Sequence record: MT446396.1
Strand: one strand, 5' to 3'
Origin: Escherichia virus TH22
DNA: 64,000 bases
Shown: in pieces, positions 41,864 through 64,000 of the stretch
Layout of the letters: the number at the start of each line of letters is the position of its first letter
How positions within the stretch are numbered: the first letter of the stretch is position 1
Made by a program: the position numbers and the translations under genes
The notes under the pieces: model-generated
Seen by the model: only the letters and a program-made list of their open reading frames with translations
Databases searched by the model: none
What the model was told of the DNA's origin: nothing

Positions 41864-41922
41864 CCAAAGACCTTAGAACCATTATACACAGTAAAAATAA
41901 AAGCGTTAAAGGCGAAAAAGTG

Positions 41923-47604: not shown

Positions 47605-47781
47605 ATGCCACTTTATGATTACAAATGCCAATCTGATGACTGCGCGAAAGAATACGAAAAAATCAAGAAAATCTCTGAAAGAGATAATGATGTTTGTCCT
47701 GATTGTCATCGGCTGGCTGTTCGGTTAGTCTCGGCTCCCAAACATGTTAATGGCGGTTTTTACGACCTGCTGACTAAGTGA
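47605..47781 (+). CDS. FmdB-like zinc-ribbon protein
   Basis: 58 aa: MPLYDYKCQSDDC...VCPDCH; below track cutoff. Confidence 0.45.
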   Translation: MPLYDYKCQSDDCAKEYEKIKKISERDNDVCPDCHRLAVRLVSAPKHVNGGFYDLLTK

Positions 47782-47787
47782 GAAATT

Positions 47788-48048
47788 ATGAAATACATTA
47801 ATCGTTCTATTGCTGCGCTGGTTCTGGCAGTTTCATTAGCTGGTTGTACTGATGCAGATAACGCCATTCGTGTATTAGATGCAAACGGCTATGAGCAAAT
47901 CCAAATCACCGGATATAATTGGTTCTCTTGTGGTAAAGATGATTTCCAACACACAGGCTTTACGGCCGTGGGTCCAACTGGTAAGAAAGTTGAAGGAACT
48001 GTTTGTTCTGGTTTGTTGTTCAAGAATTCAACCATCCGATTTGAATGA
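47788..48048 (+). CDS. putative lipoprotein
   Basis: signal peptide with lipobox SLAGC. Confidence 0.45.
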   Translation: MKYINRSIAALVLAVSLAGCTDADNAIRVLDANGYEQIQITGYNWFSCGKDDFQHTGFTAVGPTGKKVEGTVCSGLLFKNSTIRFE

Positions 48049-48055
48049 GGATATT

Positions 48056-48460
48056 ATGTTTAAAATTGGAAAGAGTTATTGCATTAAAGATTTAGATGGC
48101 TTCCTTAAACATGTCGGTATGCCCGGTTGCATTTTGAACCAGCAAGGAACCTCTATTATTGATTTGATTACTACCAAAGAGTTTTCAGTCACCAAGATGG
48201 AAGCAAATGTTGTGACGGAATTTAGTACTATCGATGGAACTGGATTTTCTTTCCATAGTCGTAATGGAACCGGTCTTATTTTTGGTGATGAATTTAAATA
48301 TTTTGAAGAAGCTCCGGTAAAGGAATGTGATTCTGAAATAACCGAACAGGAATCAAAAGAGGATATCGTTGTTACCGGTGGCGATGTTATTATTACGGTT
48401 AAAACTGAAGCCGGTCGCCTACAAGCTATTAAAATGTTAGAGCAGCTTCGATTCAAATAA
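48056..48460 (+). CDS. hypothetical protein
   Basis: 134 aa from internal ATG of track ORF 47879..48460. Confidence 0.35.
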   Translation: MFKIGKSYCIKDLDGFLKHVGMPGCILNQQGTSIIDLITTKEFSVTKMEANVVTEFSTIDGTGFSFHSRNGTGLIFGDEFKYFEEAPVKECDSEITEQESKEDIVVTGGDVIITVKTEAGRLQAIKMLEQLRFK

Positions 48461-48480
48461 AAGGCCTTCGGGCCTTTTTG
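48461..48480 (+). terminator. intrinsic terminator
   Basis: AGGCCTTCGGGCCT hairpin + TTTT. Confidence 0.7.
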
Positions 48481-48525
48481 CTTTAAAATATGTGACTTAT
48501 AATACCTCCATACACAAGAGGAAAG

Positions 48526-50358
48526 ATGATGATTAATAATGAAATTAAAGTACTCTCGGACGTCGAGCATATCAAAAAACGTTCCGGGATGTATATTGGT
48601 TCCAGTTCAAATGAAGCGCATGAGCGATTCTTGTTTGGTGAATATAAGTCCGTAAGCTATGTTCCTGGTATTGTAAAACTGATTGATGAAATTATTGATA
48701 ACTCTGTTGATGAAGCAATTCGCACCAGTTTTAAATTTGCCAATAAAATTGATGTTCAAATTAAAGACAATCAGATTTCGGTTTCTGATAATGGCCGTGG
48801 TATTCCACAAGCAATGGTTACAGACCAAAACGGTGAACAAATCCCTGGCCCTGTTGCAGCATGGACTATTCCAAAAGCAGGTGGCAACTTCGGTGATGAT
48901 GCTGAACGTAAAACTGGCGGGATGAATGGCGTCGGGTCTTCTCTGACCAATATTTTCTCTGTATTGTTCACCGGGATTACCGCTGATGGTGCAAATGAAA
49001 TCACCGTTAACTGCTCCAATGGTATGGAAAACAAAGGTTGGTCTACCAAGAAATCTAAGGGTAAAGGTACAACTGTTATTTTTGTTCCGGACTTCAGTCA
49101 CTTTGAAGAAAATAGTCTGTCCCAGATTTATCTGGATATTACATTGGACCGTCTGCAGACTCTTGCGGTTGTTTATCCGGATATTCAGTTTACCTTTAAT
49201 GGTAAAAAGGTTGATGGCAATTTCAAGAAGTTCGCCAAGCAATTCGGAACCGAAGTTGTTATCCAGGAAACTGATACAGTATCGATGGCCTTTACGACTA
49301 GCCCGGATGGTTTCCGCCAGTTGACTTATGTCAACAACATTCATACAAAGAATGGTGGGCACCACGTTGAATGTGTTATGGATGATATCTGTGAACATCT
49401 TCAGCCAGCCATTAAACGCAAATATAAAGGCATTGAGGTGACAAAGGCACGAGTTAAAGAATGCCTCACCATGCTTATGTTCATCCGCGATATGAGCAAC
49501 ATGCGATTTGATTCCCAGACTAAGGAGCGATTGACTTCTCCGGCTGGTGAAATTCGAAATCACATTAAGATTGATGCCAAGAAAATCGCACAAGCTATTC
49601 TGAAAAATGAACCGCTGATTATGCCGATTGTTGAAGCTGCATTAGCCCGTAAATTGGCTGCAGAGAAAGCAGCAGAGACCAAGGCGAATAAGAAAGCTTC
49701 AAAGGCCAAGGTGCAAAAGCATATCAAGGCTAACGAATGGGGCAATGATAAGCTGGAAACGACTCTGTTCCTGACCGAAGGTGATTCTGCAACCGGTCCA
49801 TTTATCAAGGTCCGCGACCGTGAATTACAAGGTGCTTATCCGTTACGTGGTAAGTTCAAAAACACATGGGGTCTGAAAGCTGTTGACGTTATGAAGAACG
49901 CCGAAGCCTTTGATGTTTGTGCGATTACTGGTTTAACGATTGGACAACCGGCCGAGAATATGAATTACCGAAACATTGCTATCATGACAGATGCGGATGT
50001 GGATGGTGTTGGTAGTATCTATCCATCGTTATTGGCGTTTTTCAGTAACTGGCCGGAGCTGTTCCATGAAGGGCGAATTCGCTTTGTGAAAACTCCTGTT
50101 ATTATTGCGCAGCTCAAAGATAAACAAGAATGGTTTTATTCTCTTCCTGATTATGAAGAAGCTAAGGATAAACTTCCGAAGCATACTATCAGATATATAA
50201 AGGGACTTGGTTCTCTGGAAGATGCCGAGTACAAACGCGTATTGCTCGAACCGGTATTCGAAGTTGTTCAATTGCCCGACAACTGGAAAGAACTGTTCGA
50301 AATGCTCTTCGGTAAAGATTCCCAGCAGCGTAAAGATTGGATGAATGCAACACTATAA
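48526..50358 (+). CDS. 39: DNA topoisomerase II large subunit (GyrB-like), fused 39+60 type
   Basis: 610 aa; GHKL ATPase and TOPRIM; single uninterrupted ORF covering the part T4 encodes separately as gene 60. Confidence 0.9.
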   Translation: MMINNEIKVLSDVEHIKKRSGMYIGSSSNEAHERFLFGEYKSVSYVPGIVKLIDEIIDNSVDEAIRTSFKFANKIDVQIKDNQISVSDNGRGIPQAMVTDQNGEQIPGPVAAWTIPKAGGNFGDDAERKTGGMNGVGSSLTNIFSVLFTGITADGANEITVNCSNGMENKGWSTKKSKGKGTTVIFVPDFSHFEENSLSQIYLDITLDRLQTLAVVYPDIQFTFNGKKVDGNFKKFAKQFGTEVVIQETDTVSMAFTTSPDGFRQLTYVNNIHTKNGGHHVECVMDDICEHLQPAIKRKYKGIEVTKARVKECLTMLMFIRDMSNMRFDSQTKERLTSPAGEIRNHIKIDAKKIAQAILKNEPLIMPIVEAALARKLAAEKAAETKANKKASKAKVQKHIKANEWGNDKLETTLFLTEGDSATGPFIKVRDRELQGAYPLRGKFKNTWGLKAVDVMKNAEAFDVCAITGLTIGQPAENMNYRNIAIMTDADVDGVGSIYPSLLAFFSNWPELFHEGRIRFVKTPVIIAQLKDKQEWFYSLPDYEEAKDKLPKHTIRYIKGLGSLEDAEYKRVLLEPVFEVVQLPDNWKELFEMLFGKDSQQRKDWMNATL

Positions 50359-50361
50359 ATA
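50354..50361 (+). promoter_or_regulatory. T4-type late promoter core TATAAATA
   Basis: exact TATAAATA followed by perfect 16-bp palindrome GGGAGAATATTCTCCC (50367-50382) and SD. Confidence 0.4.
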
Positions 50362-50400
50362 GATGTGGGAGAATATTCTCCCGTCTTATAGGAGAAGTCC

Positions 50401-50553
50401 ATGAAAAAGTGGTGGGTTACGTTGTCAAATGGCGAATACGGTTATCTGTGGGCCGAGACTAAACCTCTGTTTGCATCCTTTGTCACCATTATGTGCGAGA
50501 CCTGGGATGGTGAATACTATACCGCATATGGGCAAGTCTATAAAGTTGAGTAG
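50401..50553 (+). CDS. hypothetical small Trp/Tyr-rich protein
   Basis: 50 aa; AGGAGAAG SD; followed by terminator; below track cutoff. Confidence 0.3.
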   Translation: MKKWWVTLSNGEYGYLWAETKPLFASFVTIMCETWDGEYYTAYGQVYKVE

Positions 50554-50557
50554 CCAA

Positions 50558-50580
50558 AAGGACCTTCGGGTCCTTTTTTA
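50558..50580 (+). terminator. intrinsic terminator
   Basis: AGGACCTTCGGGTCCT hairpin + TTTTT. Confidence 0.7.
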
Positions 50581-50629
50581 TTATGTACAAGCCACAAAAA
50601 TTGTGTTAAGATATCCTTGAGGTGAACAT

Positions 50630-50914
50630 ATGATTATGTCTGACGGAAGTTTAGTTAATCTGCAGAATGTTGCACGTTGTATTATGGAAGCTGGTCTGAG
50701 GAAGGTACAGGAACTCCCAGATAGCGACAGGAAGCGAAGTTACTTGTTGGCTGTAAGAACAGCAGCCATGAGCATTAAGGCTGGTCAGAAGGTCCCTGAG
50801 GAGCGAATTGAAGCACTCCTTGCATTGATATACCATGGCCAAGAACATAAAGCTACCATGCGTAGTATGAGAAAAATATTGCAGGAGATTGGAAATGACA
50901 AACTTCAAAGTTAA
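50630..50914 (+). CDS. hypothetical protein
   Basis: 94-aa ORF. Confidence 0.35.
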   Translation: MIMSDGSLVNLQNVARCIMEAGLRKVQELPDSDRKRSYLLAVRTAAMSIKAGQKVPEERIEALLALIYHGQEHKATMRSMRKILQEIGNDKLQS

Positions 50915-51098
50915 TATGGAACTGTTTGATAAAGCTGTCCATAAAGAATACCGTGTTATCCAACGATTTTTTGATATAAGAGAAGCTGAAGAGTTTAAAG
51001 AACGCTTCAAAGAAATCCGTATTAAAATAGCTTCAGACACCGCAACAAAGGATGAACTTCTTGAAGTTGCAGAATTAATCAAACGTAACATAAAGTGA
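50895..51098 (+). CDS. hypothetical protein
   Basis: 67 aa from ATG with GGAG SD. Confidence 0.3.
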   Translation: MTNFKVNMELFDKAVHKEYRVIQRFFDIREAEEFKERFKEIRIKIASDTATKDELLEVAELIKRNIK

Positions 51099-51105
51099 GA
51101 AAAAC

Positions 51106-53340
51106 ATGATTTTAGAAACTGAAAAGGAAACAATCCTTGGTAATGGTGCCAAGGCATCAGCATTCACAATCCAGGCATCTCCAAAGGTGTTTAAGATTCT
51201 GACCAGTGACCTTTATACAAATAAGGTGCGCGCGGTTGTTCGTGAGCTGATTACCAATATGATTGATGCTCATATGCTCAATGGTTGTCAGGATAAATTC
51301 ATTGTTCAAGCTCCTGGTGAACTGGACCCACGCTTTGTGTGTCGTGACTTTGGTCCAGGTATGAGTGATTTCCAGATTCGTGGTGATGAAAACACTCCAG
51401 GTCTGTATAACAGTTTCTTTGCATCATCCAAGGCCGAATCTAATGATTTTATTGGTGGCTTTGGTTTGGGCTCTAAATCTCCGTTCAGTTATACAGAGAC
51501 GTTTAGCCTGATTTCGTATCATGATGGTCAAGTTAATGGTTATGTCGCTTATATGGACGGCGATGGTCCACAGATTAAGCCAACCTTTAGCGAACCAATG
51601 AAACCTGGCGACCGCACAGGGATTGAAGTTGTTGTCCCGGTTGATAGTAATGATTTTGGTAAGTTCCGCCACGAGATTGCATATATCATGCGCCCATTTG
51701 CTGGACTGGCTGAAGTACAAGGCGTAGGCGAAATTAATTATTTCCCGGAATTTGATGATTATTATGCTCCAGAGCGTATTAATTATAGCAGTCCAGAACG
51801 TTATGGGCTTTATGCAATTTACGGTGGAATTGTTTATCCAATTGCTGACGGTTATACAAAGAAAACCTGGATGACTGCCAAAAATGATGTTGTCTTTATT
51901 AAGTTCCCGATGGGTTCGTTGGATATTGCACCTTCTCGCGAAGCATTATCACTGGACAAACGTACTGTAGCAAATATCGTTGAACGTATTGAATCGCTTG
52001 ATAAGAAGGTCATGGAAGATGATTGTAAGAAATGGCAGGAAACAGAATGTATCCGCCATACGTATCGCGAATTGCAGAGTCTGAGTTATGAAGCTCGTAA
52101 TTTTCTGAAAGCTCGTAATGCTGAAACGAAATTTACGAAATCGCAATTGACCTTTAACCAGATGTACGAAATGTTCGAGCTGGATAAAGACCTTATTAAT
52201 GCCGGGGTTGTCTATGATATCTATAGCACTACCCGTCTGAAACGTCTGCGCAACTCAAGCTCGAACACGAATACTGCAAGTCTGACGAGCATGTTTGGTA
52301 TTCAGAATAATACCTTGAACATTGTTATTGACGATGCTAAAGGGCGAATTGCGATGATTCGTGGTATCAGTTCAATGCTATATGACACCAGCGCGAAAGC
52401 CAAAAAGCTCAAAGCATCTGGTAAAGTCCCGACTGTACAAGGTAGTAGTCTATTGTTCGTTGACCCAACCAGCGAAATTCAAACATGTCTGATGGTTCAA
52501 CTTCAAGAACGATTTAAAGGCGATACAGTTAATATCTATCGTACGTCTGAACTGACCGCCCTTGTAAAAGACTGGATTCCGGTTGCTGACCCGAAAGCGC
52601 GCGTTAAGTCAAAGACTCCATCATTGATTCGTTGGACTAAAACTAATGGCAAATGGCAGTCTGTTGAAGAATTTACATGTGCAGCTGATGCAGAGGAAAT
52701 CGATGGTTATGCTGTATTCATTAACCGCAGTAGCATTTCCCCGTTGAATCAAGAATATGGCACCACGACCTTCGGGACCCAGACATTGTGTAAACTGGCA
52801 AACCTGTTGGAAATCAATGAATTCTGTGTTATTCGTCCACAGCTTCAGAAAAAGATTACCAAGCTGGCGCAGTGTGATTGTCTGATTGAAGCTGCAGTCA
52901 ATCGTTATGTGGAATTGATTGATGCGGTTGATGCGGACCAGTACATTGCCGCTTCAAGCCGTTCACGTTATTATATTCCTATCCTGTCTGAATATGCAGA
53001 ACTGAATTTTATGTTCAAGTATTTTTATGCAAAAGATGTTCAGAAAGATGTGAATACTGACTATGCCGAACTAATGCAGTTCAATAAGTTCTTTGCTTAT
53101 AACGCATATAACAGTGGAACAGTTGATAAGACCATGCAGGAAACTCTGGTCCTTTGTAATAAGATTTATGACGACCTGACCAAAAACGCTTCGGTAACAA
53201 GCGATAAAATGGTTTTTGAATTTGAAAAGAATCACCCGATTGTTTCACACTTTTTATATAACCGTAACGCCATGTCAACTGAACAAGTACAGAACGTTGC
53301 TCAAATCATGAAGGCCGTGGAAGCGGCCAATAAGGAATAA
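51106..53340 (+). CDS. rIIA: rIIA (membrane-associated lysis-inhibition/exclusion protein, GHKL-like N-domain)
   Basis: 744 aa; N-terminal 300 aa near-collinear with T4 rIIA (TEKETILGNG..., RAVVRELITNMIDAH, GGFGLGSKSPF). Confidence 0.95.
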   Translation: MILETEKETILGNGAKASAFTIQASPKVFKILTSDLYTNKVRAVVRELITNMIDAHMLNGCQDKFIVQAPGELDPRFVCRDFGPGMSDFQIRGDENTPGLYNSFFASSKAESNDFIGGFGLGSKSPFSYTETFSLISYHDGQVNGYVAYMDGDGPQIKPTFSEPMKPGDRTGIEVVVPVDSNDFGKFRHEIAYIMRPFAGLAEVQGVGEINYFPEFDDYYAPERINYSSPERYGLYAIYGGIVYPIADGYTKKTWMTAKNDVVFIKFPMGSLDIAPSREALSLDKRTVANIVERIESLDKKVMEDDCKKWQETECIRHTYRELQSLSYEARNFLKARNAETKFTKSQLTFNQMYEMFELDKDLINAGVVYDIYSTTRLKRLRNSSSNTNTASLTSMFGIQNNTLNIVIDDAKGRIAMIRGISSMLYDTSAKAKKLKASGKVPTVQGSSLLFVDPTSEIQTCLMVQLQERFKGDTVNIYRTSELTALVKDWIPVADPKARVKSKTPSLIRWTKTNGKWQSVEEFTCAADAEEIDGYAVFINRSSISPLNQEYGTTTFGTQTLCKLANLLEINEFCVIRPQLQKKITKLAQCDCLIEAAVNRYVELIDAVDADQYIAASSRSRYYIPILSEYAELNFMFKYFYAKDVQKDVNTDYAELMQFNKFFAYNAYNSGTVDKTMQETLVLCNKIYDDLTKNASVTSDKMVFEFEKNHPIVSHFLYNRNAMSTEQVQNVAQIMKAVEAANKE

Positions 53341-53341
53341 T

Positions 53342-54313
53342 ATGTTTAATATCAAATGTATGTCTAAAGCCGAACAAGCTGATGTGGTCCAGATGTATTC
53401 AACGGGCAATTATACCCAGCCTGAATTGGCAGAATATTTTGCTGTGTCCGTTGACACCATTCGCCGCGTTTTGAAAAATGATAAAGAATCAAAATTAGCT
53501 AAAACCATTTCTGCATCACTGAAAGCAGCTGTTGGTGTGGCGATTAATGCTCCGGTGACAGTAACGGTTGAAGTCCCGGTTACTGATACAATCGGCGGAA
53601 GCCGACCGGAAATCGTATGGAATGCATCAAGCAAATTCGTTTCCATCACTGAAGGCCGTACAGTCTGGAACGCAACAAAAGACCATAAACACTTTGATGA
53701 TATTATTCAGGCACTCAAAGAATCTCGTTTTGACGATGCTATCGAGTTTATCTCAATCAAAGCTGCAGTACAAAAATATGTGAAAGGCGATGTGCGTATT
53801 GAAGGCGGTAGTCTGTTCTATCAGGGAATTGAACTGCGCTCTGGTCTGGTTACTCGTATCATCGATTCAATGCAAAATGGCGAAGACTTTGAATTCTATC
53901 TGCCGTTCCTTGAGAATCTCCTTGAGAACCCGAGTGAGAAAGCTGTGCAGCGTTTGTTTGACTTCCTGGTTGCAAACGATATCGAAATCACCGAAGACGG
54001 TCATTTCATCGCATGGAAAATGGTTCGTGCAACTTACAAAGATTGTCACTCAAACACATTCGACAACAGCCCTGGTCAATATGTTAAAATGCCGCGCTCT
54101 CGTGTGAATGACAACGACGAACAAACCTGTTCAACTGGACTGCACGTTTGTTCTAAAGGTTATATCGGAAGTGGTTTTGGTCATGGTGATGGACGCATCG
54201 TATCCTGTAAAGTTCACCCGCGTGATGTTGTAAGTATCCCGGTTGATTATAACGATTCCAAAATGCGGGTCTGTGGTTACTTAGTCCTTGATGATGTAAC
54301 TGAACAATTCTAA
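53342..54313 (+). CDS. rIIB: rIIB
   Basis: 323 aa; collinear with T4 rIIB (MFNIKCMSK..., SPGQYVKMPRSRVNDNDEQTCSTGLHVCSKGYIG). Confidence 0.95.
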   Translation: MFNIKCMSKAEQADVVQMYSTGNYTQPELAEYFAVSVDTIRRVLKNDKESKLAKTISASLKAAVGVAINAPVTVTVEVPVTDTIGGSRPEIVWNASSKFVSITEGRTVWNATKDHKHFDDIIQALKESRFDDAIEFISIKAAVQKYVKGDVRIEGGSLFYQGIELRSGLVTRIIDSMQNGEDFEFYLPFLENLLENPSEKAVQRLFDFLVANDIEITEDGHFIAWKMVRATYKDCHSNTFDNSPGQYVKMPRSRVNDNDEQTCSTGLHVCSKGYIGSGFGHGDGRIVSCKVHPRDVVSIPVDYNDSKMRVCGYLVLDDVTEQF

Positions 54314-54346
54314 ATTAATCGGGGCTTCGGCCCCTAATGAGGCTTT

Positions 54347-54544
54347 ATGTTAGGTTTCCAAGCACGTGCAGTTGAAGAACATGACCAGCTGGTTTTGAAA
54401 ATTAATGCTCTTGAAGAATTTATTAAGGGCGGTGTTTTTGAAACTCTCGATGCTCGTCAACAAGGTCTTTTGATTGCCCAGTTAGATGCGATGGGTGCTT
54501 ATGCTCATGTACTGGCAACTCGTATCTCTTATTTTGGTGAATAA
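54347..54544 (+). CDS. hypothetical protein
   Basis: 65-aa ORF. Confidence 0.3.
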   Translation: MLGFQARAVEEHDQLVLKINALEEFIKGGVFETLDARQQGLLIAQLDAMGAYAHVLATRISYFGE

Positions 54545-54547
54545 ATT

Positions 54548-54868
54548 ATGATTAACTATATGAACGTTGGCGATGAATCTATTAACGAAATTCGATTGCA
54601 TGGTAATCATGTTGCGGATATTGTTTATTGTGTTGATTGTCATTATGCTTCCACAAAGTCAACTGGCCGGTTATATGCGAGAGACATCATTCTTGCAACG
54701 AAAGAAGAACTTCGTAGTCTGGACCATTCTACTCTAGCCGAAAGTGCCAGAATTTATTATGGCGTCGTTCATGTAGACAAAGTTTATATTGGCAGTGATT
54801 ATCAAGAGCAAGCTGAGCAAAATTCTTTGGATGTTGTCGAAAAATCCGATATGTATTTTAAAGGATGA
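54548..54868 (+). CDS. hypothetical protein
   Basis: 106-aa ORF. Confidence 0.3.
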   Translation: MINYMNVGDESINEIRLHGNHVADIVYCVDCHYASTKSTGRLYARDIILATKEELRSLDHSTLAESARIYYGVVHVDKVYIGSDYQEQAEQNSLDVVEKSDMYFKG

Positions 54869-54872
54869 GCTG

Positions 54873-55466
54873 ATGATTCAGAAGAGTAAAACATGGGAGC
54901 ATCTGAAAAAGATGCCCTCCTTTCTTTATACAAAGGAAGACTTAACCCCCGAATCCCTGCAAAAGATTGTAGACACTGCCAGGTATTCATTGCGTAAAGA
55001 CCCAGGTCAGGACCGTGAGCAAGTCATGCAAAGATGTATGGTGGCTACAATGGCTGAACAAGCTATTGCTAAATGGACTTCAGGTTTTTTATGTGGTGGC
55101 GATGAAGATTACGATAATCCTTATTCCTTTGCATTTGATGTAGTTTCGAAGGAAGGGGTGAGAATCGAAGTCAAGACCCACCAGTCTGGTTCCAAATGGA
55201 TATCCGTGCATACTGGTCACCAGGGTGATTATCCGCATGGTTACGGGATTAATCTTGGTCCTTTTATGCAGCACAAGCTTGCCGACCTTATGATTATGCT
55301 CGATGTAAAAGAGACTCTCAAAGGTTGTAGATTTAAACCAAAATTCCTTGCTGGACCTGGTGCTTTCGTTCCTGAGTCTGGTCTTGTGCAGAAGTCACAA
55401 GGGGATGGTTGGTACCTCCGTTCTTGTTCAGAAGAAAAATTTCCCTATCACCGGTTTACAAGCTGA
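54873..55466 (+). CDS. hypothetical protein with PD-(D/E)xK-like motif (candidate nuclease)
   Basis: 197 aa; FDVVSKEGVRIEVK fits the D-x(n)-E-x-K pattern; in the interval where T4 has denB. Confidence 0.35.
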   Translation: MIQKSKTWEHLKKMPSFLYTKEDLTPESLQKIVDTARYSLRKDPGQDREQVMQRCMVATMAEQAIAKWTSGFLCGGDEDYDNPYSFAFDVVSKEGVRIEVKTHQSGSKWISVHTGHQGDYPHGYGINLGPFMQHKLADLMIMLDVKETLKGCRFKPKFLAGPGAFVPESGLVQKSQGDGWYLRSCSEEKFPYHRFTS

Positions 55467-55513
55467 ACCAACTATGTAATAATGTCCTCATACCAACAAA
55501 TGAGGGCATTATC

Positions 55514-55789
55514 ATGGAACACGTTACTACTCACAACATCAAACAAATTCTTATTCAAGCACTCAAAAACAATAACATCAATTTTCCAACCCATGAAATT
55601 TTTGATGTGGTATTCAACGAAGTTCAGGGTCAAGTTGCATATTATGACGTTATCGTTTATCTTTCAGAATTTGAAGTCTATCACCTGACTGAAATTGCTT
55701 TCTATCTCTATCGTGGGACTGCAGATTTCACTGGGGTTGTGAATGCAGTTGGTGCATATAAAGAAGTTAAAGAACAAATGCAAAATTAA
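55514..55789 (+). CDS. hypothetical protein
   Basis: 91-aa ORF. Confidence 0.3.
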   Translation: MEHVTTHNIKQILIQALKNNNINFPTHEIFDVVFNEVQGQVAYYDVIVYLSEFEVYHLTEIAFYLYRGTADFTGVVNAVGAYKEVKEQMQN

Positions 55790-55799
55790 TTAAAAAGTA

Positions 55800-55864
55800 G
55801 TGTACATCAGTATGGAGTCTATTGTATAATGATTCCATACTGAGTTACCAAACTGGAGAATAAA
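55800..55864 (+). promoter_or_regulatory. early promoter with family-B leader
   Basis: AGTAGTGTACA, TATAAT, TTCCATACTGAGTTACCAAA. Confidence 0.55.
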
Positions 55865-56020
55865 ATGAAACCTGCTCAATATGCAATGACTTTATACCTT
55901 GAAGTTAATGGCGATATTACTGAATTTTTTAAATTAATGCAACAACGCGGAAAAAGTTTTGCAGTTACTGAGCGTCAATTTTACGCTTGCCGTAAAAATA
56001 CATACAATCGTTATGCGTGA
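55865..56020 (+). CDS. hypothetical small protein
   Basis: 51 aa; below track cutoff. Confidence 0.25.
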   Translation: MKPAQYAMTLYLEVNGDITEFFKLMQQRGKSFAVTERQFYACRKNTYNRYA

Positions 56021-56030
56021 GGAAAACAGA

Positions 56031-56291
56031 ATGGATATTAAATTATACTACGCCAAACACAAAGTTACAGGTAAAGTTGTTGCCGCCATGTACGATGCAT
56101 CAGGTGAAGATGTTATTACGGAATTATCCCTTTCTAATTGTAGATTTCTTCGTCCTTTGCTAGCATCAAAAAAAGATTTACAAAAACTTATCGACGGTAA
56201 ATTAGATAATGTCGATGGTATAGATATTCATTATGAACTCCGCCATGCACTGAATGATGGGTTTATGGAAATAAAAGAGATAGTATTATGA
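56031..56291 (+). CDS. hypothetical protein
   Basis: 86-aa ORF. Confidence 0.3.
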   Translation: MDIKLYYAKHKVTGKVVAAMYDASGEDVITELSLSNCRFLRPLLASKKDLQKLIDGKLDNVDGIDIHYELRHALNDGFMEIKEIVL

Positions 56292-56381
56292 GTAGCAAAA
56301 CCTGGTGTCTTATCTGGATGTTGTGTATCCCAGTAATTTGCGTTTGTTTTAGTTTATTATTATTGAAACTTGCATAAAAGA

Positions 56382-56436
56382 GTGTACATCTCCAGTGGTT
56401 GTAGTATAATGAACCTATCAACTACTGGAGATGATT
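56382..56436 (+). promoter_or_regulatory. early promoter with family-A leader
   Basis: GTGTACA, TATAAT, CCTATCAACTACTGGAG. Confidence 0.5.
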
Positions 56437-56547
56437 ATGAAAAACTTACTTAAAGCAATTTGGAACATGTTTGTGTTGTTAATGGTATTGAGCATTTTCC
56501 CAATCGTTTTTATGATTGACCATGTACGTGTATTCTTTAACTTCTGA
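56437..56547 (+). CDS. hypothetical small hydrophobic peptide
   Basis: 36 aa, one transmembrane-like helix; GGAG SD. Confidence 0.25.
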   Translation: MKNLLKAIWNMFVLLMVLSIFPIVFMIDHVRVFFNF

Positions 56548-56557
56548 GGAAAATATT

Positions 56558-56704
56558 ATGGGTAATCGAATTTATAAAGTAAAGCTGCACGGTAAAGTGA
56601 TTGCAACCCTTAGCTTTAATGCTTATATCAGTGCTGATTGTGCTCGTGATATCCTCATTGAGGAAGGTTATAGCAAATACATCCAAATTGAAGAAATTCT
56701 TTAA
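56558..56704 (+). CDS. hypothetical small protein
   Basis: 48 aa; TTCTGAGGAAAATATTATG leader, the same leader repeated before 56722. Confidence 0.25.
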   Translation: MGNRIYKVKLHGKVIATLSFNAYISADCARDILIEEGYSKYIQIEEIL

Positions 56705-56721
56705 CTTCTGAGGAAAACATT

Positions 56722-56925
56722 ATGAAACTTTTTAAAGATGTTGCAGTTGGTGAGAGCTTTGTATTACATAATGGTCAACAACTGATTCGTATTTCTCCTT
56801 TACAAGTTGGCGGCGAATTACAGCCTGTAAATGCTACAGACCTTTATGATTCAACTAAGCGTTTTTGCGTAGGCCCTAGTGTACAGTGCCTTACCGTTGA
56901 TGAACTGATGGCTATTTCTGAATAA
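56722..56925 (+). CDS. hypothetical protein
   Basis: 67-aa ORF with the same leader. Confidence 0.3.
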   Translation: MKLFKDVAVGESFVLHNGQQLIRISPLQVGGELQPVNATDLYDSTKRFCVGPSVQCLTVDELMAISE

Positions 56926-56935
56926 GGAAAATATT

Positions 56936-57280
56936 ATGTCTAAAGTATTTTTTGGTAATCGCAACATTATGTTCTTTAAACAGATTAGCGTATCAGAAGC
57001 ATTTGATTTAAGTTATTCAGGTGGTACAAAAGCTGTTAACCTTAAAAATTTGATGTCTGCAGAATTTGCATTCTATCAGGACCCTGAAACTGGTTTCTAC
57101 AAATTTATTAAGTTCCGCATGACTATGGACCGAGATTATCGCGATGTTTATTATACAAGTTATGAGAGTGTTATCAATGCAATTCGCGAAGCTTATGGAT
57201 TGGATTCGTTGTCTCTTGACCGCTTGTATAATGCTACTTTTTATACGAGCGGATTTATTTTAGAACAACTTCAAAAATAG
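56936..57280 (+). CDS. hypothetical protein
   Basis: 114-aa ORF. Confidence 0.3.
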   Translation: MSKVFFGNRNIMFFKQISVSEAFDLSYSGGTKAVNLKNLMSAEFAFYQDPETGFYKFIKFRMTMDRDYRDVYYTSYESVINAIREAYGLDSLSLDRLYNATFYTSGFILEQLQK

Positions 57281-57353
57281 TGTACAAACTCTTGGGGTCA
57301 GAGTATAATGACCCCACTGGAGCACAAAACTTTAACTTACTGAGGAAATTAAT
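57281..57353 (+). promoter_or_regulatory. PeSL-type cassette (family C)
   Basis: 43-nt core identical to 46403..46445. Confidence 0.6.
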
Positions 57354-57803
57354 ATGACTACTTACATGACCCGTCGTGACGTACTGAATGCTGGCGCTAC
57401 CACTGTTGCTTACATCCATAATGGTAATTATGTCGCAGGGCGTCCAACTAAAGAAGCTATCACCCAACCAGGTTTTTATTTCGTGGTTAAAGGTGAAGGC
57501 GAATCACGTATTGTTGCTGCACGTTTTTACGTTGGTAACCAACGTTCACAACAAGGGTTTGACACTGTATTAAGTCACATCCGCAAACAGCGTTCTCAAC
57601 TGTCTCGCACAATGGCGAACAATGGTGTTATCTATGAAGTCCTGTTTGTTCCAGTTTCTAAAATGAAACCTCTGACAACTGGTTATGGTAAAGGTCAAAT
57701 TGCGATGGCGTTCACACGCTCGCATAGTTCTGATTGCCAGACCCTTTCAGAAATGAATCGCATGCTTGCTGATAACTTTAAATTCATTCTGCAGAGTTAT
57801 TAA
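57354..57803 (+). CDS. ndd: nucleoid disruption protein Ndd
   Basis: 149 aa; position upstream of stp/52 and recalled similarity to T4 Ndd ([31 protein letters not shown]). Confidence 0.55.
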
Positions 57804-57804
57804 T

Positions 57805-57978
57805 ATGAGACATTTCTTTGCAATGGGTTACTTATTTGTTTTAGCACTATTTGTTATTACAGGAGCCTTTATAGCCTTTGGCGCTCCATTTAATGATAAA
57901 GTTGCTGTTACTATGTGCTTTAGTGGTGGGTATATCTGTTTTGAACGCTTATGCAAAATGTGTGGTATATATGAGTAA
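57805..57978 (+). CDS. hypothetical small membrane protein
   Basis: 57 aa hydrophobic; below track cutoff. Confidence 0.3.
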
Positions 57979-58051
57979 TTTCCATAATGAACATGTGATG
58001 CAATGGCATCGTCATAATCTGAAATTAACTGGCGTCTTCGGGCGCCCTTGA
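57971..58051 (+). CDS. stp: Stp peptide (activator of host anticodon nuclease PrrC via EcoprrI)
   Basis: 26-aa [29 protein letters not shown]; length, position (ndd-stp-52) and sequence match T4 Stp as recalled. Confidence 0.6.
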
Positions 58052-58058
58052 GGAAAAT

Positions 58059-58220
58059 ATGATTATCCTAGTTTTTATTGAACTTATTATAGCTATTGTT
58101 TGTTCGGTTTGCTTCTTTTTAGGCGTGTGGACCCCTGGTCCGCTATTCTTAAGTTTTCTGTTTATTGGCTGGATTCTTTCTACTTTTGTCGGTTTACTTA
58201 AGATGATTAAAAATGATTAA
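58059..58220 (+). CDS. hypothetical small membrane protein (ac-like by position)
   Basis: 53 aa hydrophobic, between stp and gene 52; below track cutoff. Confidence 0.3.
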   Translation: MIILVFIELIIAIVCSVCFFLGVWTPGPLFLSFLFIGWILSTFVGLLKMIKND

Positions 58221-58361
58221 GAAAATCCTGGGCTACTCGTTAGCCCTTGCTGCCTTATTGGTAGCGCTGTATTATGGAGTTGTATTTGCATTAGTGCAGA
58301 TTGTGCTTTTTATTTCTGATGCTATAATGGCAGTACATTCGTTAATCTGGTAAGGTGATAT

Positions 58362-59741
58362 ATGTCTGACGTTTTAAGTATGATGTCCAAACAGTTCAGT
58401 GATTCCATGGGGACCCTTAACCCACGCAGTCTAAAAGACATTATTGATGTGGAAGCATTGTCATATGCTATCTACACTGTGGAAGGTCGTGCCATCCCAA
58501 ACATGATTGATGGTTTTAAACCAGTTCACAGATTTGTTATGGCGAGAGCATTAGACCTGGCACGCGGTGATAAGAATAAATTTCATAAGGTTGCATCCAT
58601 CGCAGGTGGCGTAGCTGATTATGGTTATCACCATGGTGAAGCATCAGCGGAAGAAGCAACTTCTGGTCTGGTTGCAACATATAAAAATGAATATCCTATG
58701 TTTGATGGGCAAGGTAACTTTGGTTCCAGAATGGTGCCAGAAGCATCATCAGCTCGTTATGTATTCGCAAGGGTTTCAAAGAACTTTTATAACTTGTTTA
58801 AGGATACAGAATATGCTCCGGTCCATCCTGATGAAGAACATAAGCCTCCTGCTTTTTATCTTCCTGTTATTCCTACTGTATTACTTAACGCCACTTCTGG
58901 GATTGCTGTTGGCTTCGCTACTGATATTCTGCCTCATTCGTTCCAGGACGTCAAGGAAGCTGTTAAAGCTATCGTGGAAGGTCGGGAACCGGTTGCTCCG
59001 AAAGTAAAATATCCAGAATTCCGCGGTAAAGTGGTTGAGCTGGAAGAGCCTGGCAAGTATGAGCTTCATGGCACATACAAAATGACTTCCAGGACCCAAA
59101 TGGAAATTACTGAAATTCCGGTCCAATGGAACCTGGAAAAGTATACAAGTAAAATACTTGACCCGTTGGAAGAGAAAGGTTTTATCACCTGGAAAGATAA
59201 CTGCGGTGAGCATGGTTTTGGGTTTAAGATTAAATTCCGCAAAGAATACAAGTTGGATGGTACTGAACAAGAAAATCATGAGAAAATCATGAAAGACTTT
59301 GGTCTGATTGAGAAGCTCTCCCAGAACTTAACGGTGCTTAATCACAAAGGCAAACTGGCCGAATACACCAACACGCTTGACCTGATTCGCGATTTCGTTG
59401 ATGTTCGTAAGACTTATGTTCAAGTGCGAATTGACAGTAAGATTAAAGAAACTGAAGCAGCGTTTAAACTGGCCCGGGCAAAAGTATTCTTTATTAAAGA
59501 AGTGATTGACGGTAAGGTTGTTATCCAGGGGAAACCTCGTAAGAAGTTGATTGAGGAACTCCAGGCGAGTGAAATATATGGCGATTATGCAGAGAAGTTA
59601 GTGGCGATGAACATCTACCATATGACCTCTGATGAAGCCAAGAAGCTTGCAGACGAAGCAAAGGCTAAGAAAGCTGAGCATGAGTACTGGAAGACAACTG
59701 ATGTTAAAACTGAATACCTTAATGATTTGGAGGCTCTATGA
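58362..59741 (+). CDS. 52: DNA topoisomerase II medium subunit gp52 (GyrA-like)
   Basis: 459 aa; collinear with T4 gp52 (AIPNMIDGFKPV.RF, active-site region SSARYVFARVS). Confidence 0.9.
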   Translation: MSDVLSMMSKQFSDSMGTLNPRSLKDIIDVEALSYAIYTVEGRAIPNMIDGFKPVHRFVMARALDLARGDKNKFHKVASIAGGVADYGYHHGEASAEEATSGLVATYKNEYPMFDGQGNFGSRMVPEASSARYVFARVSKNFYNLFKDTEYAPVHPDEEHKPPAFYLPVIPTVLLNATSGIAVGFATDILPHSFQDVKEAVKAIVEGREPVAPKVKYPEFRGKVVELEEPGKYELHGTYKMTSRTQMEITEIPVQWNLEKYTSKILDPLEEKGFITWKDNCGEHGFGFKIKFRKEYKLDGTEQENHEKIMKDFGLIEKLSQNLTVLNHKGKLAEYTNTLDLIRDFVDVRKTYVQVRIDSKIKETEAAFKLARAKVFFIKEVIDGKVVIQGKPRKKLIEELQASEIYGDYAEKLVAMNIYHMTSDEAKKLADEAKAKKAEHEYWKTTDVKTEYLNDLEAL

Positions 59742-59834
59742 GTTTTGGAGTGGAGTTTGCATTGCTTTGTATTTTTGCGGCAATCGCAGGTGTGATTGTT
59801 GGTATGTTTATTGGTAATAAGATAGATAAAGACT

Positions 59835-59858
59835 AGGACCCTTCGGGGTCCTTTTTTA
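59835..59858 (+). terminator. intrinsic terminator
   Basis: GGACCCTTCGGGGTCC + TTTTTT; same hairpin as at 5982. Confidence 0.7.
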
Positions 59859-59949
59859 TTTTAAAAAGTAGTGTACAATCCCCTTGACCCGCTGCATAAT
59901 AATTCCATACTGAGTTACACAATGAATCACAAAAACTTTGGAGAATAAA
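59859..59949 (+). promoter_or_regulatory. early promoter with family-B leader
   Basis: AGTAGTGTACA, CATAAT, TTCCATACTGAGTTAC. Confidence 0.5.
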
Positions 59950-60165
59950 ATGTTTACTGCACAACAGAATGAAGGTCAAGAATACATTAACATCAAATTC
60001 AAATCTAACAAAGAAGCTTGCTATTACTACTTTGACATGTTCAAACTGGCGAATTCTAAAGAAGAACGTAAACAAGCGATTGATGTGATTGTTTCTACTT
60101 CCCATATGAAACGTACTGTGGTACAATCATATGCATCAAATTACATGAAATCTATTAAGGGATAA
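59950..60165 (+). CDS. hypothetical protein
   Basis: 71-aa ORF. Confidence 0.3.
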   Translation: MFTAQQNEGQEYINIKFKSNKEACYYYFDMFKLANSKEERKQAIDVIVSTSHMKRTVVQSYASNYMKSIKG

Positions 60166-60167
60166 TT

Positions 60168-60776
60168 GTGAACAAGTTAAATTATATCGTTAAATGCTCC
60201 CAGAACGCGCTGCATGAGACTGATGTCAATGCTCTGGTGTTTGTATACAAAAACAACTTTGTGAGTCCAGAGGTTGTTTTAGACCAGCAGAACACATCAA
60301 TTGATAGTGTGCAGACCTTGTTGAATAACAACTATGTTGAAGCTTCTGGTGATGGTTTGATGATTACAGAAAAGGGTGTTGGCCTTATTCTGGATGCAGC
60401 TGAACTTTGGGCGAATGAAAATAATCCTGACCTTCTGGAAGTGAAGAAGACAAGAACAAAACGCGGTGTGACTGATGAAATGGAAGCGACTGCAGAATAT
60501 ATCAAAGAGCAATTGTTGTCTATTGATATTGACTTTAAGAGCATTTCAGAAGACCGCAGCAATCTGATTGTGAAGTTCAAGCGTATCAAGACATTAAAAC
60601 AGATTGATGTACGTCGTGATGGTCAGATTCGCGTACATGCGTATAATACTGAACAAAAGATAGTAAAACAGTTTACAGACGTGGGATTTAGCGTTAAAGT
60701 GGGTGGATTGAATACCTACATTGACAACGTTATGTCAACTGAAAACATTCAACATGTTATTAACATCTTAAAGTGA
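60168..60776 (+). CDS. motA: MotA-like middle-transcription activator (by synteny)
   Basis: 202 aa, GTG start with AGGGA SD; between gene 52 and asiA as T4 motA. Confidence 0.45.
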   Translation: MNKLNYIVKCSQNALHETDVNALVFVYKNNFVSPEVVLDQQNTSIDSVQTLLNNNYVEASGDGLMITEKGVGLILDAAELWANENNPDLLEVKKTRTKRGVTDEMEATAEYIKEQLLSIDIDFKSISEDRSNLIVKFKRIKTLKQIDVRRDGQIRVHAYNTEQKIVKQFTDVGFSVKVGGLNTYIDNVMSTENIQHVINILK

Positions 60777-60783
60777 GGAAATT

Positions 60784-61116
60784 ATGAATAAGCTGAATAT
60801 TGTTAATGAATTGCGCGCTTGTGTAGAACCTACTCAAGAGGGTTGGGATGTTTGGTATCATGGCGCTTACCTTGGAACTATTATCAAGGTCAAAGCTGGT
60901 CAGTATCTTATCCATCGTCAGGATGATGCAGTAGCTCCGTTTGGTGCACGCAAGAACTTCATGGCAGCGATTGGTGCCTTTGTTCCAGCAGCATATGAAG
61001 TATATAAAGCTGACTACAAAGAATACCAGGAATCACAACCAGTTATTCGCTCAATTGGTGTTAATAAAGCTCAACAGAAAAGTCTGTGGCAACGTGTTAA
61101 AGGTTGGTTCAAATGA
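60784..61116 (+). CDS. hypothetical protein
   Basis: 110-aa ORF. Confidence 0.3.
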
Positions 61117-61601
61117 ATCCATTAAAAGGTAAAGAATTATCCTTTAAAGACCGTATAGCTTTATTAGATAAAGCTCTTTCTCGCGAGACTCCAGAAAGCC
61201 TCGCTGCTAAATTACGGGCATATGGTGATTACACCGAATATAATGAAGAAGATGTCCTGGAAGAAGTCCCGGAAATCTGTTGGCAGATTGCTCATTGGAA
61301 CAACAATGAAAAATATCAGCGCCGGATTGTGTGCGCAGCCAACCGCTTCAGGTTAAAAGATGGTGGGACTCTGGTTATTCCTGGTGCCAGACATTATTCA
61401 AAAGATATGGCAGAAGTTCTTGACCAGGTAAGTGATAAACTTGTGTCAGACCATGTTTGTGGTGATAATCAAGGATTCATTGACCAATACAGCAATTACT
61501 GGACCCGCGAAGAAGCAATGATTATTGCGACTTATGCAAATCAGGTGCGCATTGAACGTGGCGGTAGTGAGAAAGAACTTTATTCAGAGGACCTTTACTA
61601 A
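61104..61601 (+). CDS. hypothetical protein
   Basis: 165-aa ORF. Confidence 0.3.
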
Positions 61602-61879
61602 TGAACCTTAAACAACTCCAAATTGATGCGATTGAAAACCATATTAATCATATCAAACGGCTGAATACCATGATGGAAGACAACTGGGGAACTTATGTTA
61701 ACCAGCCAGGTTGGGATGCCCTAGACCATGAATATATAAAGGATATTAGTGATAACACATATAGAGTTAGAGAAGGCCTGAAACCATTCCTGCGTGATAT
61801 GTATATTGCGACCAATAAAGAAATTATTAGTTCTCTTGAATACCAATTAAGGAAATTGTATGAACAACCTGGTAGCTAA
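61601..61879 (+). CDS. hypothetical protein
   Basis: 92-aa ORF. Confidence 0.3.
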   Translation: MNLKQLQIDAIENHINHIKRLNTMMEDNWGTYVNQPGWDALDHEYIKDISDNTYRVREGLKPFLRDMYIATNKEIISSLEYQLRKLYEQPGS

Positions 61880-62191
61880 ACACGATTTCAATAAGGCGTC
61901 TGTCCATAAGGACAAGAAGAAAACAGAAATGCAGTCCAAACGTAAGCAGAAGCACAAGGGGAATCACTATGAGTCATAACTTAGAGAATGCCATCACTGG
62001 TCAGCGTACACGCGAGCAGGCTTGCTTTGAGGAATTCCTTGGAGCTGATTTTAAGTTCCAGGAACCAGTTGAACAGATGTATCAGGAATATGTTGTACAG
62101 ATGGAAAATCATGTGTACAACCCAGAGGAATAATAGTACAATATCCTTACTGAATAATTGAATGTCTTATTGAATACTTGAGTAAATTAAA

Positions 62192-62467
62192 ATGACTAAA
62201 TTTGAAATCGTTTCTGAAATTGTTACTGTAACTTCAATTTTGATTAAAACCGACCGGGAAGATATTACGATGAAGCGTGATGTGTTTATCGCGTTTTTGA
62301 ATGAGTTGGGATTGAGGAATGAGAATGGTAATGAGTTAAACAATGTATCGTTTAACAAGTTGTTTAAAAGTTTATCTGAAGATGAAATTGAACAAATCAT
62401 TGAACAATTTAACGAAGGATTCGAAGATATACACCGTTATCTTATGATGTATACCTCCGGATTCTAA
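62192..62467 (+). CDS. asiA: anti-sigma70 factor AsiA
   Basis: 91 aa; EIVTVTSILIK..REDI...FIAFLNE.G...FNEGFE..HRYL.MYT matches T4 AsiA; convergent with t. Confidence 0.75.
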   Translation: MTKFEIVSEIVTVTSILIKTDREDITMKRDVFIAFLNELGLRNENGNELNNVSFNKLFKSLSEDEIEQIIEQFNEGFEDIHRYLMMYTSGF

Positions 62468-63117
62468 CGTGTACGCCCAAGCGTACGACCTGCTTGTCCA
62501 CACATAGCAGAAAGCCTATCAAAACCAAGGATAGGTTTTTGCTTATACCAGTACAGCGAGACTGTACCTGCATAAACGTTTTCCAAATTAAAGAATGGGC
62601 AGCTGAACATATATGAGAAGCTGCTTTTTTTCTTTGTTGGTAAGAATACAGATTCCGTACTGGATTCAAAATAATTACCATTAACCCCCGCCAAATATTC
62701 TGCTGAAGTTTTATCTATTGGAAACCCACCCAAATTTTTTTCGTCGACTGTATCAGGCAATATCCCCTCATATCCCACCATATCCACAAAGTAGTTAAGG
62801 TTAGTTGGTCTAAAAGAATATATTGCTGTAAAGTCTGCTCCACTTGACGAGTGGACTATCTGGATTTGCTCGATAGCTGCAATTTTAAATCTGTTATCCT
62901 GGTCTTGCCTTATCATTTCTGTGTACGAGGCATATGAAGCATCCCTGTACGCATCTAAAATTGCATCACCTTTATACCAGATTACCACCATTAAAAATAA
63001 TAGAACAATAACTAGTACCCGGGAAAAAACAACTTTCCCGGTCGCATTATCTTTAAAAATTCTATCAAGAAGTCCAAAAAGTAGATCGGGTATTGATATT
63101 CCTACTTTTGGTTCCAT
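62464..63117 (-). CDS. t: holin T
   Basis: 217 aa; single N-terminal TM; near-collinear with T4 T (DLLFGLLDRIFKDNATGKV..., YSFRP.NLNYFVD, YMFSCP.FNL.N.YAGT). Confidence 0.9.
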   Translation of the reverse strand: MEPKVGISIPDLLFGLLDRIFKDNATGKVVFSRVLVIVLLFLMVVIWYKGDAILDAYRDASYASYTEMIRQDQDNRFKIAAIEQIQIVHSSSGADFTAIYSFRPTNLNYFVDMVGYEGILPDTVDEKNLGGFPIDKTSAEYLAGVNGNYFESSTESVFLPTKKKSSFSYMFSCPFFNLENVYAGTVSLYWYKQKPILGFDRLSAMCGQAGRTLGRTR

Positions 63118-63139
63118 ACTTTCTCCTTAACTTTAAAGA

Positions 63140-63147
63140 TATTTATA
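63140..63147 (-). promoter_or_regulatory. late promoter TATAAATA for t
   Basis: - strand TATAAATA 20 nt upstream of SD AAGGAGAAAGT-ATG. Confidence 0.55.
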
Positions 63148-63152
63148 AGTTC

Positions 63153-63937
63153 TTAACTAAGCCAAGGACCATAAATCGTACCTGTCGCGCCCCATGCAGG
63201 AGCAGAAACGGCAACAGCAGCTCCAGAACCGCCACCGGCGCCGACTTTTAGAACTTTACCGCCATCGTGCCATGCGTTCTGGCCTGCACCACCGGCATCG
63301 CCGCCACGACCCGAGTGGGCATTACCATAATCGTATCCACTGCCAGGGCTTTCATAAGAAGCACCACCGCCGGAGTATGCACCACCACCACCTGGACCAA
63401 ATGGGCGTCCGCCTCCACCGCCGATATCTTGCCAGTTTGCACCCGAGTGAGGCCGATAAGCAATGGCACCGCCACCACCACCGCCGCCACAGATAACCCC
63501 ATAGTTCCAAATACGTAGTCTATGACCTATATGGTTGACTATACAATCACCACCCCATTGACCGTTACCGTCTCCACCTGAGTGGGTCCAACCACCGTGT
63601 CCACCACGTCCCCACATATGAACCCCGCCATGAATAGTCAAATTGACATATTCATTAGGTGTATCGCCGTTCATAAAGAACAATGGAACGTTACGGTCGT
63701 AAGATACTATATCGCCTACAATATTGAACACAATAGGCGCGCTACCAGCTTCAAAGCAGCGGTCTCATTAAAGTTATGGTTTGCCGTTATAGTGTGAATT
63801 ACTTCAACAGACCGACCTATCATATTGCCCATCCAAAACGGAGCACCCATTCTCAATCGCTGGGCGGCGCCGCCCATCCAATTTTGTCCAGTATTAACTA
63901 CTGCAGACCACCCTACCCACGGTCCTTCAACTGCCAT
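63153..63937 (-). pseudogene. 38: receptor-recognising adhesin gp38 (T2-type, Gly-rich motifs), split across two frames
   Basis: N-terminal part (63716..63937, ATG with GGAGG SD) and Gly-rich C-terminal part (63153..about 63764) are in different frames; the C-part frame shows TAA TGA directly upstream of [18 protein letters not shown]. Confidence 0.6.
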
Positions 63938-63949
63938 ATAAACCTCCAA

Positions 63950-63966
63950 GGGGCCGAAGCCCCTCT
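63950..63966 (-). terminator. GC hairpin between genes 37 and 38
   Basis: GGGGCCGAAGCCCC palindrome directly upstream of the gene 38 SD. Confidence 0.4.
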
Positions 63967-64000
63967 TATTATTTTAACAATGATTTAATTAATGCTTTAA

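Follow-up and report, generated by a model that had tools for sequence, protein, structure and literature searches.

A T4-type stp gene in a VR7-like Gaprivervirus coliphage whose closest relatives carry the standard T4 tRNA repair genes

Results and Discussion

Analysis of the window (the whole stretch of DNA that was analysed, 64,000 nucleotides) revealed a 26-codon open reading frame (ORF) that was identified as an orthologue of the T4 gene stp. The window was assigned to a VR7-like coliphage of the genus Gaprivervirus (Straboviridae, Tevenvirinae). Our preferred reading, to which we give a probability of roughly 85%, is that this phage possesses the standard T4 repair kit and that its Stp would play the usual role of the family. 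The main support came from the close match of the peptide to T4 Stp and to the Stp profiles, from the position of the gene between ndd and gene 52, and from the presence of pseT, rnlA and the Rnl2 gene in the closest relatives of the phage. Against it stand three substitutions in the conserved N-terminal region of the peptide, the lack of a Shine-Dalgarno sequence ahead of stp, and the absence of the three repair genes from the window itself. The ORF belongs to a well-known family and is already annotated, so that its identity is nothing new.

Identity and position of the stp gene

The stp gene was located in a block of six genes on the same strand, as follows.

57354-57803, plus strand: ndd (nucleoid disruption protein), 149 aa; PF06591 (Phage_T4_Ndd), 230.6 bits; 61% identity to T4 Ndd
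57805-57978, plus strand: small membrane ORF of 57 aa; full-length match to PHROG 5941 (57/57), E 2.5e-23
57971-58051, plus strand: stp, 26 codons from ATG to TGA; the stop codon TGA (58049-58051) is counted in the end coordinate
58059-58220, plus strand: small membrane ORF of 53 aa, at the position of T4 ac; PHROG 9347, E 3.9e-26
58213-58353, plus strand: homologue of gene 52.1, membrane protein of 46 aa; Pfam DUF7396, 72.4 bits; PHROG 3595
58362-59741, plus strand: gene 52, topoisomerase II medium subunit; 69% identity to T4 gp52 over 441 aa

Alignment with T4 Stp (NC_000866 165505-165585, NP_049878), which also has 26 aa, revealed identity at 20/26 positions. The substitutions relative to T4 Stp were F12W, Y13H, N15H, T19L, K20T, and Q26P, and residues 1-11, 14, 16-18, and 21-25 were the same in both peptides. 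Within the N-terminal 18 residues, 15 matched T4 Stp; residues 4-11 and 14 were unchanged, and residues 12, 13, and 15 were conservatively altered. The peptide scored 55.3 bits (E 4.4e-15) against the Pfam family PF08133 (Nuclease_act, “Anticodon nuclease activator family”), for which the curated cutoff is 25 bits, and its residues 1-25 aligned with profile positions 1-25 of 26. The match to PHROG 6763 covered 26/26 positions with an E value of 2e-19, and both profiles started exactly at the ATG at 57971. At the level of the sequence, this family match of a 26-codon ORF is far above what chance would be expected to give. Exactly the same peptide was found in the RefSeq genomes of JS98 (YP_001595386) and VR25 (YP_009210023), where both copies are labelled “activator of host PrrC lysyl-tRNA endonuclease”, and the T4 stp gene in NC_000866 carries the same annotation.

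The placement of the gene was also that of T4, with ndd upstream, 52.1 and 52 downstream, and all of these genes on one strand. The earlier note had claimed that the 26-aa ORF closely matched T4 Stp and that it lay between ndd and gene 52; both claims held, with the addition that extra small ORFs were present on either side of stp. The likeness to T4 extended to the length of the peptide, the overlapping start of the gene, and the UUCG hairpin in codons 21-26. The difference was that the window has the 57-aa ORF between ndd and stp and that the next ORF is not homologous to T4 ac. In JS98, the 57-aa ORF is also present upstream of the same peptide, whereas VR25 encodes the same peptide without the 57-aa ORF.

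The Stp-PrrC circuit

The circuit formed by Stp, EcoprrI, PrrC, and the repair enzymes Pnk and Rnl1 has belonged to the textbook knowledge of T4 since the 1980s-90s. Published studies have shown that Stp is necessary and sufficient for activating the latent tRNA-Lys anticodon nuclease and that it relieves restriction by type IC enzymes (EcoprrI and EcoR124I), but not by type IA enzymes (PMC3014915, PMC1484252, PMC12707154). The Hsd proteins keep PrrC latent until the binding of Stp frees it, and the cut tRNA-Lys is healed and sealed by T4 Pnk and Rnl1 (PMC3014915, PMC1484252, PMC12707154). The description of Stp in the earlier note, as the peptide that unleashes PrrC while T4 is rescued by its polynucleotide kinase and ligase, agreed with this published model (PMC3014915). 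T4 Stp is the only Stp that has been tested for type IC inhibition and PrrC activation (PMC3014915).

By homology, the 26-aa peptide would be made early in infection from the packed block ndd-orf57-stp-small ORF-52.1-52. It would be selected as an inhibitor of restriction enzymes of type IC, for example EcoprrI and EcoR124I. Rare E. coli strains with prrC inside the type IC locus would sense this inhibition, and the sensing would release the PrrC anticodon nuclease, by which tRNA-Lys would be cut 5' of the wobble base. The ends would then be healed by PseT, as 5'-kinase and 3'-phosphatase, and sealed by RNA ligase 1. In this scheme stp would be expressed, and the variant form of the peptide carried by this phage (the “WH” allele described below) would act on EcoprrI and PrrC.

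tRNA repair genes in the closest relatives

Within the 64-kb window, no homologues of PseT, RnlA, or Rnl2 were found. The nearest sequenced relative was UPEC07 (MW250787), with a span of about 60 kb at 98.9-99.9% identity: 99.9% over 47671-64000 and 98.9% over 4050-47761 of the window, with 86-93% in the first 4 kb. No record of the phage collection matched the window exactly, an exact-protein search with the ORF at 3762-4316 gave no hit, and no exact copy of the 81-nt stp sequence was present in IMG/VR. The coordinates of UPEC07 place pseT, rnlA, and rnlB 21-51 kb past the window end. The three genes in UPEC07 were as follows.

37890-39026: rnlA; RNA_lig_T4_1, 83.7 bits, and T4_Rnl1_C, 139.3 bits; 50.4% identity to T4
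41443-42348: pseT; AAA_33, 74.7 bits, and HAD_PNKP, 190.7 bits; 76.5% identity to T4
66907-67914: Rnl2 gene (rnlB); RNA_ligase and T4_Rnl2_C; 68.7% identity to T4

All three proteins were full length and had the T4 domain architecture. The catalytic residues of the T4 enzymes, which we take to be those from the mutagenesis studies of the Shuman laboratory, served as the list for comparison. The conserved residues included K15, S16, D35, R38, R126, D165, and D167, among others, in PseT and K99, E159, E227, K240, and K242 in RnlA; every catalytic residue that was checked in PseT, RnlA, and Rnl2 was conserved. As in T4, the neighbourhood of these genes in UPEC07 was denA-rnlA-alc ... pseT, and rnlB adjoined gene 24. 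RnlA, with 50% identity to T4, was much more diverged than the other two repair enzymes (76% for PseT and 69% for Rnl2).

The repair genes were not peculiar to UPEC07. RnlA at at least 90% identity and 100% coverage was present in 33 related records, PseT was equally widespread in related genomes, and the RefSeq genome of VR7 showed the order denA-rnlA-alc-pseT.3-pseT.2-…-pseT, which is the T4 gene order. Since the closest relatives have pseT, rnlA, and the Rnl2 gene arranged as in T4, the phage is expected to possess a standard T4 repair kit and not a novel one; for this exact phage, we infer the presence of pseT and rnlA from the sequences of those relatives. Whether the phage has a repair system corresponding to that of T4 had been regarded as open in the earlier note, together with the remark that standard T4-type pseT and rnl genes fully accounting for repair would speak against its proposal. 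PseT, RnlA, and Rnl2 in UPEC07, RnlA in 33 genomes, and the T4 order in VR7 supply the answer as far as public sequences reach: such standard genes were found in all close relatives, and this phage would carry them by inference. The PseT alleles among Gapriverviruses were mosaic, and their identity to PseT of UPEC07 ranged from 81% to 100%. A phage-encoded tRNA-Lys as the counter-measure was also considered and was rejected; UPEC07 encodes only tRNA-Met and tRNA-Arg, with no decoy tRNA-Lys, and the window contains no tRNA.

The nucleotidyltransferase at 4775

An alternative source of repair capacity was the nucleotidyltransferase at 4775, for which the earlier note had suggested a possible involvement in a repair system.

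4775-5785, plus strand: NrdC.11 orthologue, Pol-beta-type nucleotidyltransferase of the RlaP family, 336 aa; PF10127, 41.9 bits

In this alternative, NrdC.11 would take part in tRNA repair beside Pnk and Rnl1, for example by refilling the nucleotide excised at the wobble position by a nuclease of the RloC type. The window protein is 82% identical to T4 NrdC.11 (275/336 residues, no gaps). It scored 41.9 bits and T4 NrdC.11 scored 46.6 bits against PF10127 (RlaP, “RNA repair pathway DNA polymerase beta family”), both above the cutoff of 23 bits, and the Pol-beta motif GS...DxD was found at G10-S11 and D22-x-D24. Passing the gathering score and carrying this motif, it resembles the RlaP enzymes PfRlaP and PaRlaP. 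The idea gains from a December 2025 preprint, in which bacterial RlaP enzymes from Pseudomonas extend the 3'-OH of damaged RNA by 1-2 nucleotides and are proposed to help in the repair of tRNAs from which RloC-type nucleases have removed a nucleotide; T4 NrdC.11 is placed in the RlaP family there, in cluster 5 (PMC12776372).

Several observations weigh against such a role. The profile match was confined to residues 8-134, the N-terminal nucleotidyltransferase half of the protein, and the sequence matched no solved structure. The family owes its name RlaP to linkage with RNA ligase genes or RNA repair operons, but neither was found beside the gene in the window, and the same is true of T4; its neighbours were a membrane ORF of 150 aa, small hypothetical genes, and genes of the mobD/nrdC.10 type. 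In UPEC07, tens of kilobases separate the nucleotidyltransferase gene (127012-128022) from rnlA, pseT, and rnlB. The known biochemistry comes from the Pseudomonas enzymes; NrdC.11 differs in having no link to an RNA ligase operon. NrdC.11 is also common to T4, so that it is not a phage-specific answer. The involvement of NrdC.11 in tRNA repair is therefore considered unlikely, although it survived better than the other alternatives. What stood of the earlier suggestion was the RlaP match and its agreement with a current hypothesis (PMC12776372), whereas the protein proved to be the T4 NrdC.11 orthologue, with no ligase neighbour, and is no replacement for pseT and rnl. A repair role of NrdC.11 is a general T4 question and not special to this phage, and the protein is neither a substitute nor an explanation for the Pnk/Rnl1 pathway in this phage.

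Stp copies outside the T4-like phages

Peptides of the Stp family were also found in two groups of siphophages, and the core SN[FY]HNEHVM was common to the T4-like, Kagunavirus, and Webervirus copies. PHROG 28068, a 37-position profile with no function assigned, matched this core as well. The two copies were as follows.

43056-43130 of Raoultella phage RP180 (Kagunavirus, MK737937): Stp copy of 25 aa, unannotated, 24/25 identical to T4 Stp
20723-20881 of Klebsiella phage KW1.2 (Webervirus, OP978316): Stp copy, with the longer form MSKKTQCSVSNYHNEHVMRWHWQKLKERYLARQGK if the GTG start is right

The Webervirus peptide would have 35 aa if the in-frame GTG is its start, and its C-terminus differs. 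Both RP180 and KW1.2 encode a stand-alone HAD_PNKP phosphatase-domain protein of 161-162 aa and an adjoining P-loop protein, which together form a split end-healing module. This module adjoins a 376-aa protein, for which a weak match to a metallophosphoesterase profile was obtained in RP180 only. No T4-type RNA ligase was found in the RP180 and KW1.2 genomes by tblastn. Stp-like peptides together with a polynucleotide kinase have been described in the T1-like phages TLS and Stevie (PMC4319613, 2015). The siphophage peptides were therefore rejected as a new observation, being already published for TLS and Stevie (PMC4319613).

Two Stp alleles

The distribution of the peptide was surveyed by tblastn against 50,697 phage genomes and by a degenerate-pattern scan of IMG/VR. 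The tblastn search recovered the identical peptide from 39 phage records and peptides with 80-90% identity, the range to which the T4 type belongs (80% over 25 residues), from 441 others; the IMG/VR scan added 18 more loci. The collected sequences fell into two discrete alleles, the T4 type (…QFYRNNLKTKGVFGRQ) and the “WH” type of the window, and no intermediates were present among them. The WH allele is characterized by W12, H13, H15, L19, T20, and P26 and was carried by the Gapriverviruses VR20, VR25, and VR26, by the Dhakavirus JS98, and by an IMG/VR contig of about 170 kb (L020). The Stp of the window is a minority allele.

Nucleotide comparison showed that selection acts on the peptide. 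Within the WH allele, all changes were synonymous, numbering 3-5 overall and 3-4 when the window was compared with VR25 and JS98. The T4 and Kagunavirus genes were separated by 9.5 synonymous and 2.5 non-synonymous changes, and no non-synonymous change fell in codons 1-18. Because the differences are dominated by synonymous changes, the translated peptide is under purifying selection.

These data bear on a second alternative, in which the W12/H13/H15 allele of this phage, the other Gapriverviruses, and the JS98-type phages would be adaptive. The WH form would be a shifted Stp that acts on other type I enzymes or inhibits type IC enzymes unsensed by PrrC; it would evade the PrrC sensor or be adapted to another HsdR/PrrC variant, and the arms race in its T4 form would be inapplicable. 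The N-terminal 18 residues of Stp showed “almost absolute conservation” in nine T-even phages, loss-of-function mutations fell mostly at residues 4-14, and deletion of the last 8 codons had only a moderate effect (PMC3014915). On this residue map (PMC3014915), the WH changes at 12, 13, and 15 are inside the conserved 18 residues, and those at 12 and 13 are inside the 4-14 stretch. Three substitutions in a functionally critical and nearly invariant region, the lack of intermediates among the collected sequences, and the synonymous-only change within the WH allele (3-5 against 0), which suggests that the variant residues themselves are maintained, all favor a functional distinction, and W-H also stands at the corresponding positions of the distant Webervirus Stp. 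The substitutions are conservative, however, replacing aromatic by aromatic and polar by polar residues, and residues 1-11, 14, and 16-18 are unchanged from T4. Moreover, the phages with the WH allele retain PseT and RnlA with catalytic residues intact. An adaptive WH allele is thus distinctly improbable, less so only than an error in the assigned gene product, and the usual Stp role is the preferred reading. If the allele were adaptive, the two forms of Stp would be a record of an ongoing arms race at the interface between peptide and sensor. The allele differences are the only residual novelty and are unlikely to matter; as a biological lead, a second, internally conserved Stp allele with three changes in the functional N-terminal region is a modest one.

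Organization of the ndd-52 block

The genes ndd, orf57, stp, the 53-aa ORF, 52.1, and 52 were tightly packed, with successive gaps of 1, -8, 7, -8, and 8 nt. The final 8 nt of the 57-aa ORF (ATGAGTAA) contained the start codon of stp, an arrangement resembling that of T4, where the stp ATG and the ndd stop codon overlap. No Shine-Dalgarno sequence was found ahead of the stp ATG. Translation of stp is probably coupled to that of the upstream ORF, whose stop codon overlaps the stp ATG. A dedicated stp promoter was rejected: from ndd to gene 52, there was no match to Mot-box, early-type, or late-type promoters, and the sigma-70-like matches in this stretch were at chance level.

The 57-aa ORF was present in JS98 and IME341 and absent from VR20, VR25, VR26, and T4, and all four combinations of its presence or absence with the two stp alleles occurred. 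It has a C-terminal 10-residue motif, and RefSeq leaves it unannotated in JS98. The 53-aa ORF showed no detectable homology to T4 Ac by BLASTP (E 0.33). Several related GenBank records call an ORF of this block “acridine resistance”, and we suspect that the label belongs to this non-homologous 53-aa ORF and was given by position alone. PHROG 9347, which the 53-aa ORF matches, is listed without an assigned function.

The hairpin and the 52-aa annotation in UPEC07

The 3' end of stp can be folded into a stable hairpin.

58031-58046, plus strand: predicted hairpin GGCGUC-UUCG-GGCGCC with a 6-bp stem and a UUCG tetraloop, in stp codons 21-26 (GVFGRP)

The hairpin is placed just 5' of GAGG, the ribosome-binding site of the 53-aa ORF that follows, and it may stabilize the mRNA or modulate the translation of the downstream ORF. 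The predicted folding energy was -10.2 kcal/mol for the window and -11.5 kcal/mol for T4 (T4 z-score -3.2). An A-to-G change in the window relative to T4 preserves the stem pair as U.G, and wobble or neutral changes leave the stem intact in T4, VR25, and JS98, whereas it is absent from the siphophage copies. The idea that the C-terminal GVFGR is kept solely as the code for the hairpin was rejected. The Kagunavirus copies retain GVFG with other codons and without a hairpin, which argues that the peptide itself is selected and that RNA structure is not the sole constraint.

That the real product is not the 26-codon ORF, and is instead a 52-aa ORF starting at the ATG at 57893 or only an RNA hairpin or regulatory element, is very improbable: a 159-nt CDS sharing the stp stop codon is annotated in the GenBank record of UPEC07 and the UUCG hairpin in codons 21-26 is stable, but the 26 codons by which the 52-aa version is longer overlap the conserved 57-aa ORF, with its full-length match to PHROG 5941, in a different reading frame, these codons are missing where stp directly follows ndd (VR25 and T4), the PHROG and Pfam profiles begin at the ATG at 57971, and the peptide including GVFG outlasts the hairpin in the Kagunavirus copies, where the codons differ. 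Because the extra codons overlap the 57-aa ORF and are absent where stp follows ndd, the 52-aa call in UPEC07 almost certainly has a wrong start.

Annotation and genome mosaicism

The value of the result is mainly curatorial and is in the correct annotation of the block. Several GenBank records, including that of UPEC07, omit the 81-nt stp gene or stretch it into a spurious 52-aa ORF, and several also omit the 57-aa ORF and label what is probably a non-homologous ORF “acridine resistance”. The stp gene in this phage implies nothing new, the peptide being known and the relatives having standard repair genes; with Stp labelled in RefSeq and the standard repair genes present in sister phages, there is little significance beyond annotation. 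A separate labelling matter was noticed in UPEC07, where the product of 104152-104607 (positions 4152-4607 of the extracted locus L003), labelled “RNA ligase/cyclic nucleotide phosphodiesterase”, matched the Acb1 anti-CBASS phosphodiesterase (PF23474, 200.6 bits) and is not an RNA ligase.

For positions 1-9000 of the window, the best megablast match was the Gaprivervirus UPEC01, at 96.9%. Together with the drop to 86-93% identity to UPEC07 in the first 4 kb, compared with 98.9-99.9% in the rest, this match indicates mosaic exchange in the vs-tk-mobD region. The window start, in the vs/tk region, also encodes a macro-domain protein of 154 aa (13-477; Pfam Macro, 33.5 bits).
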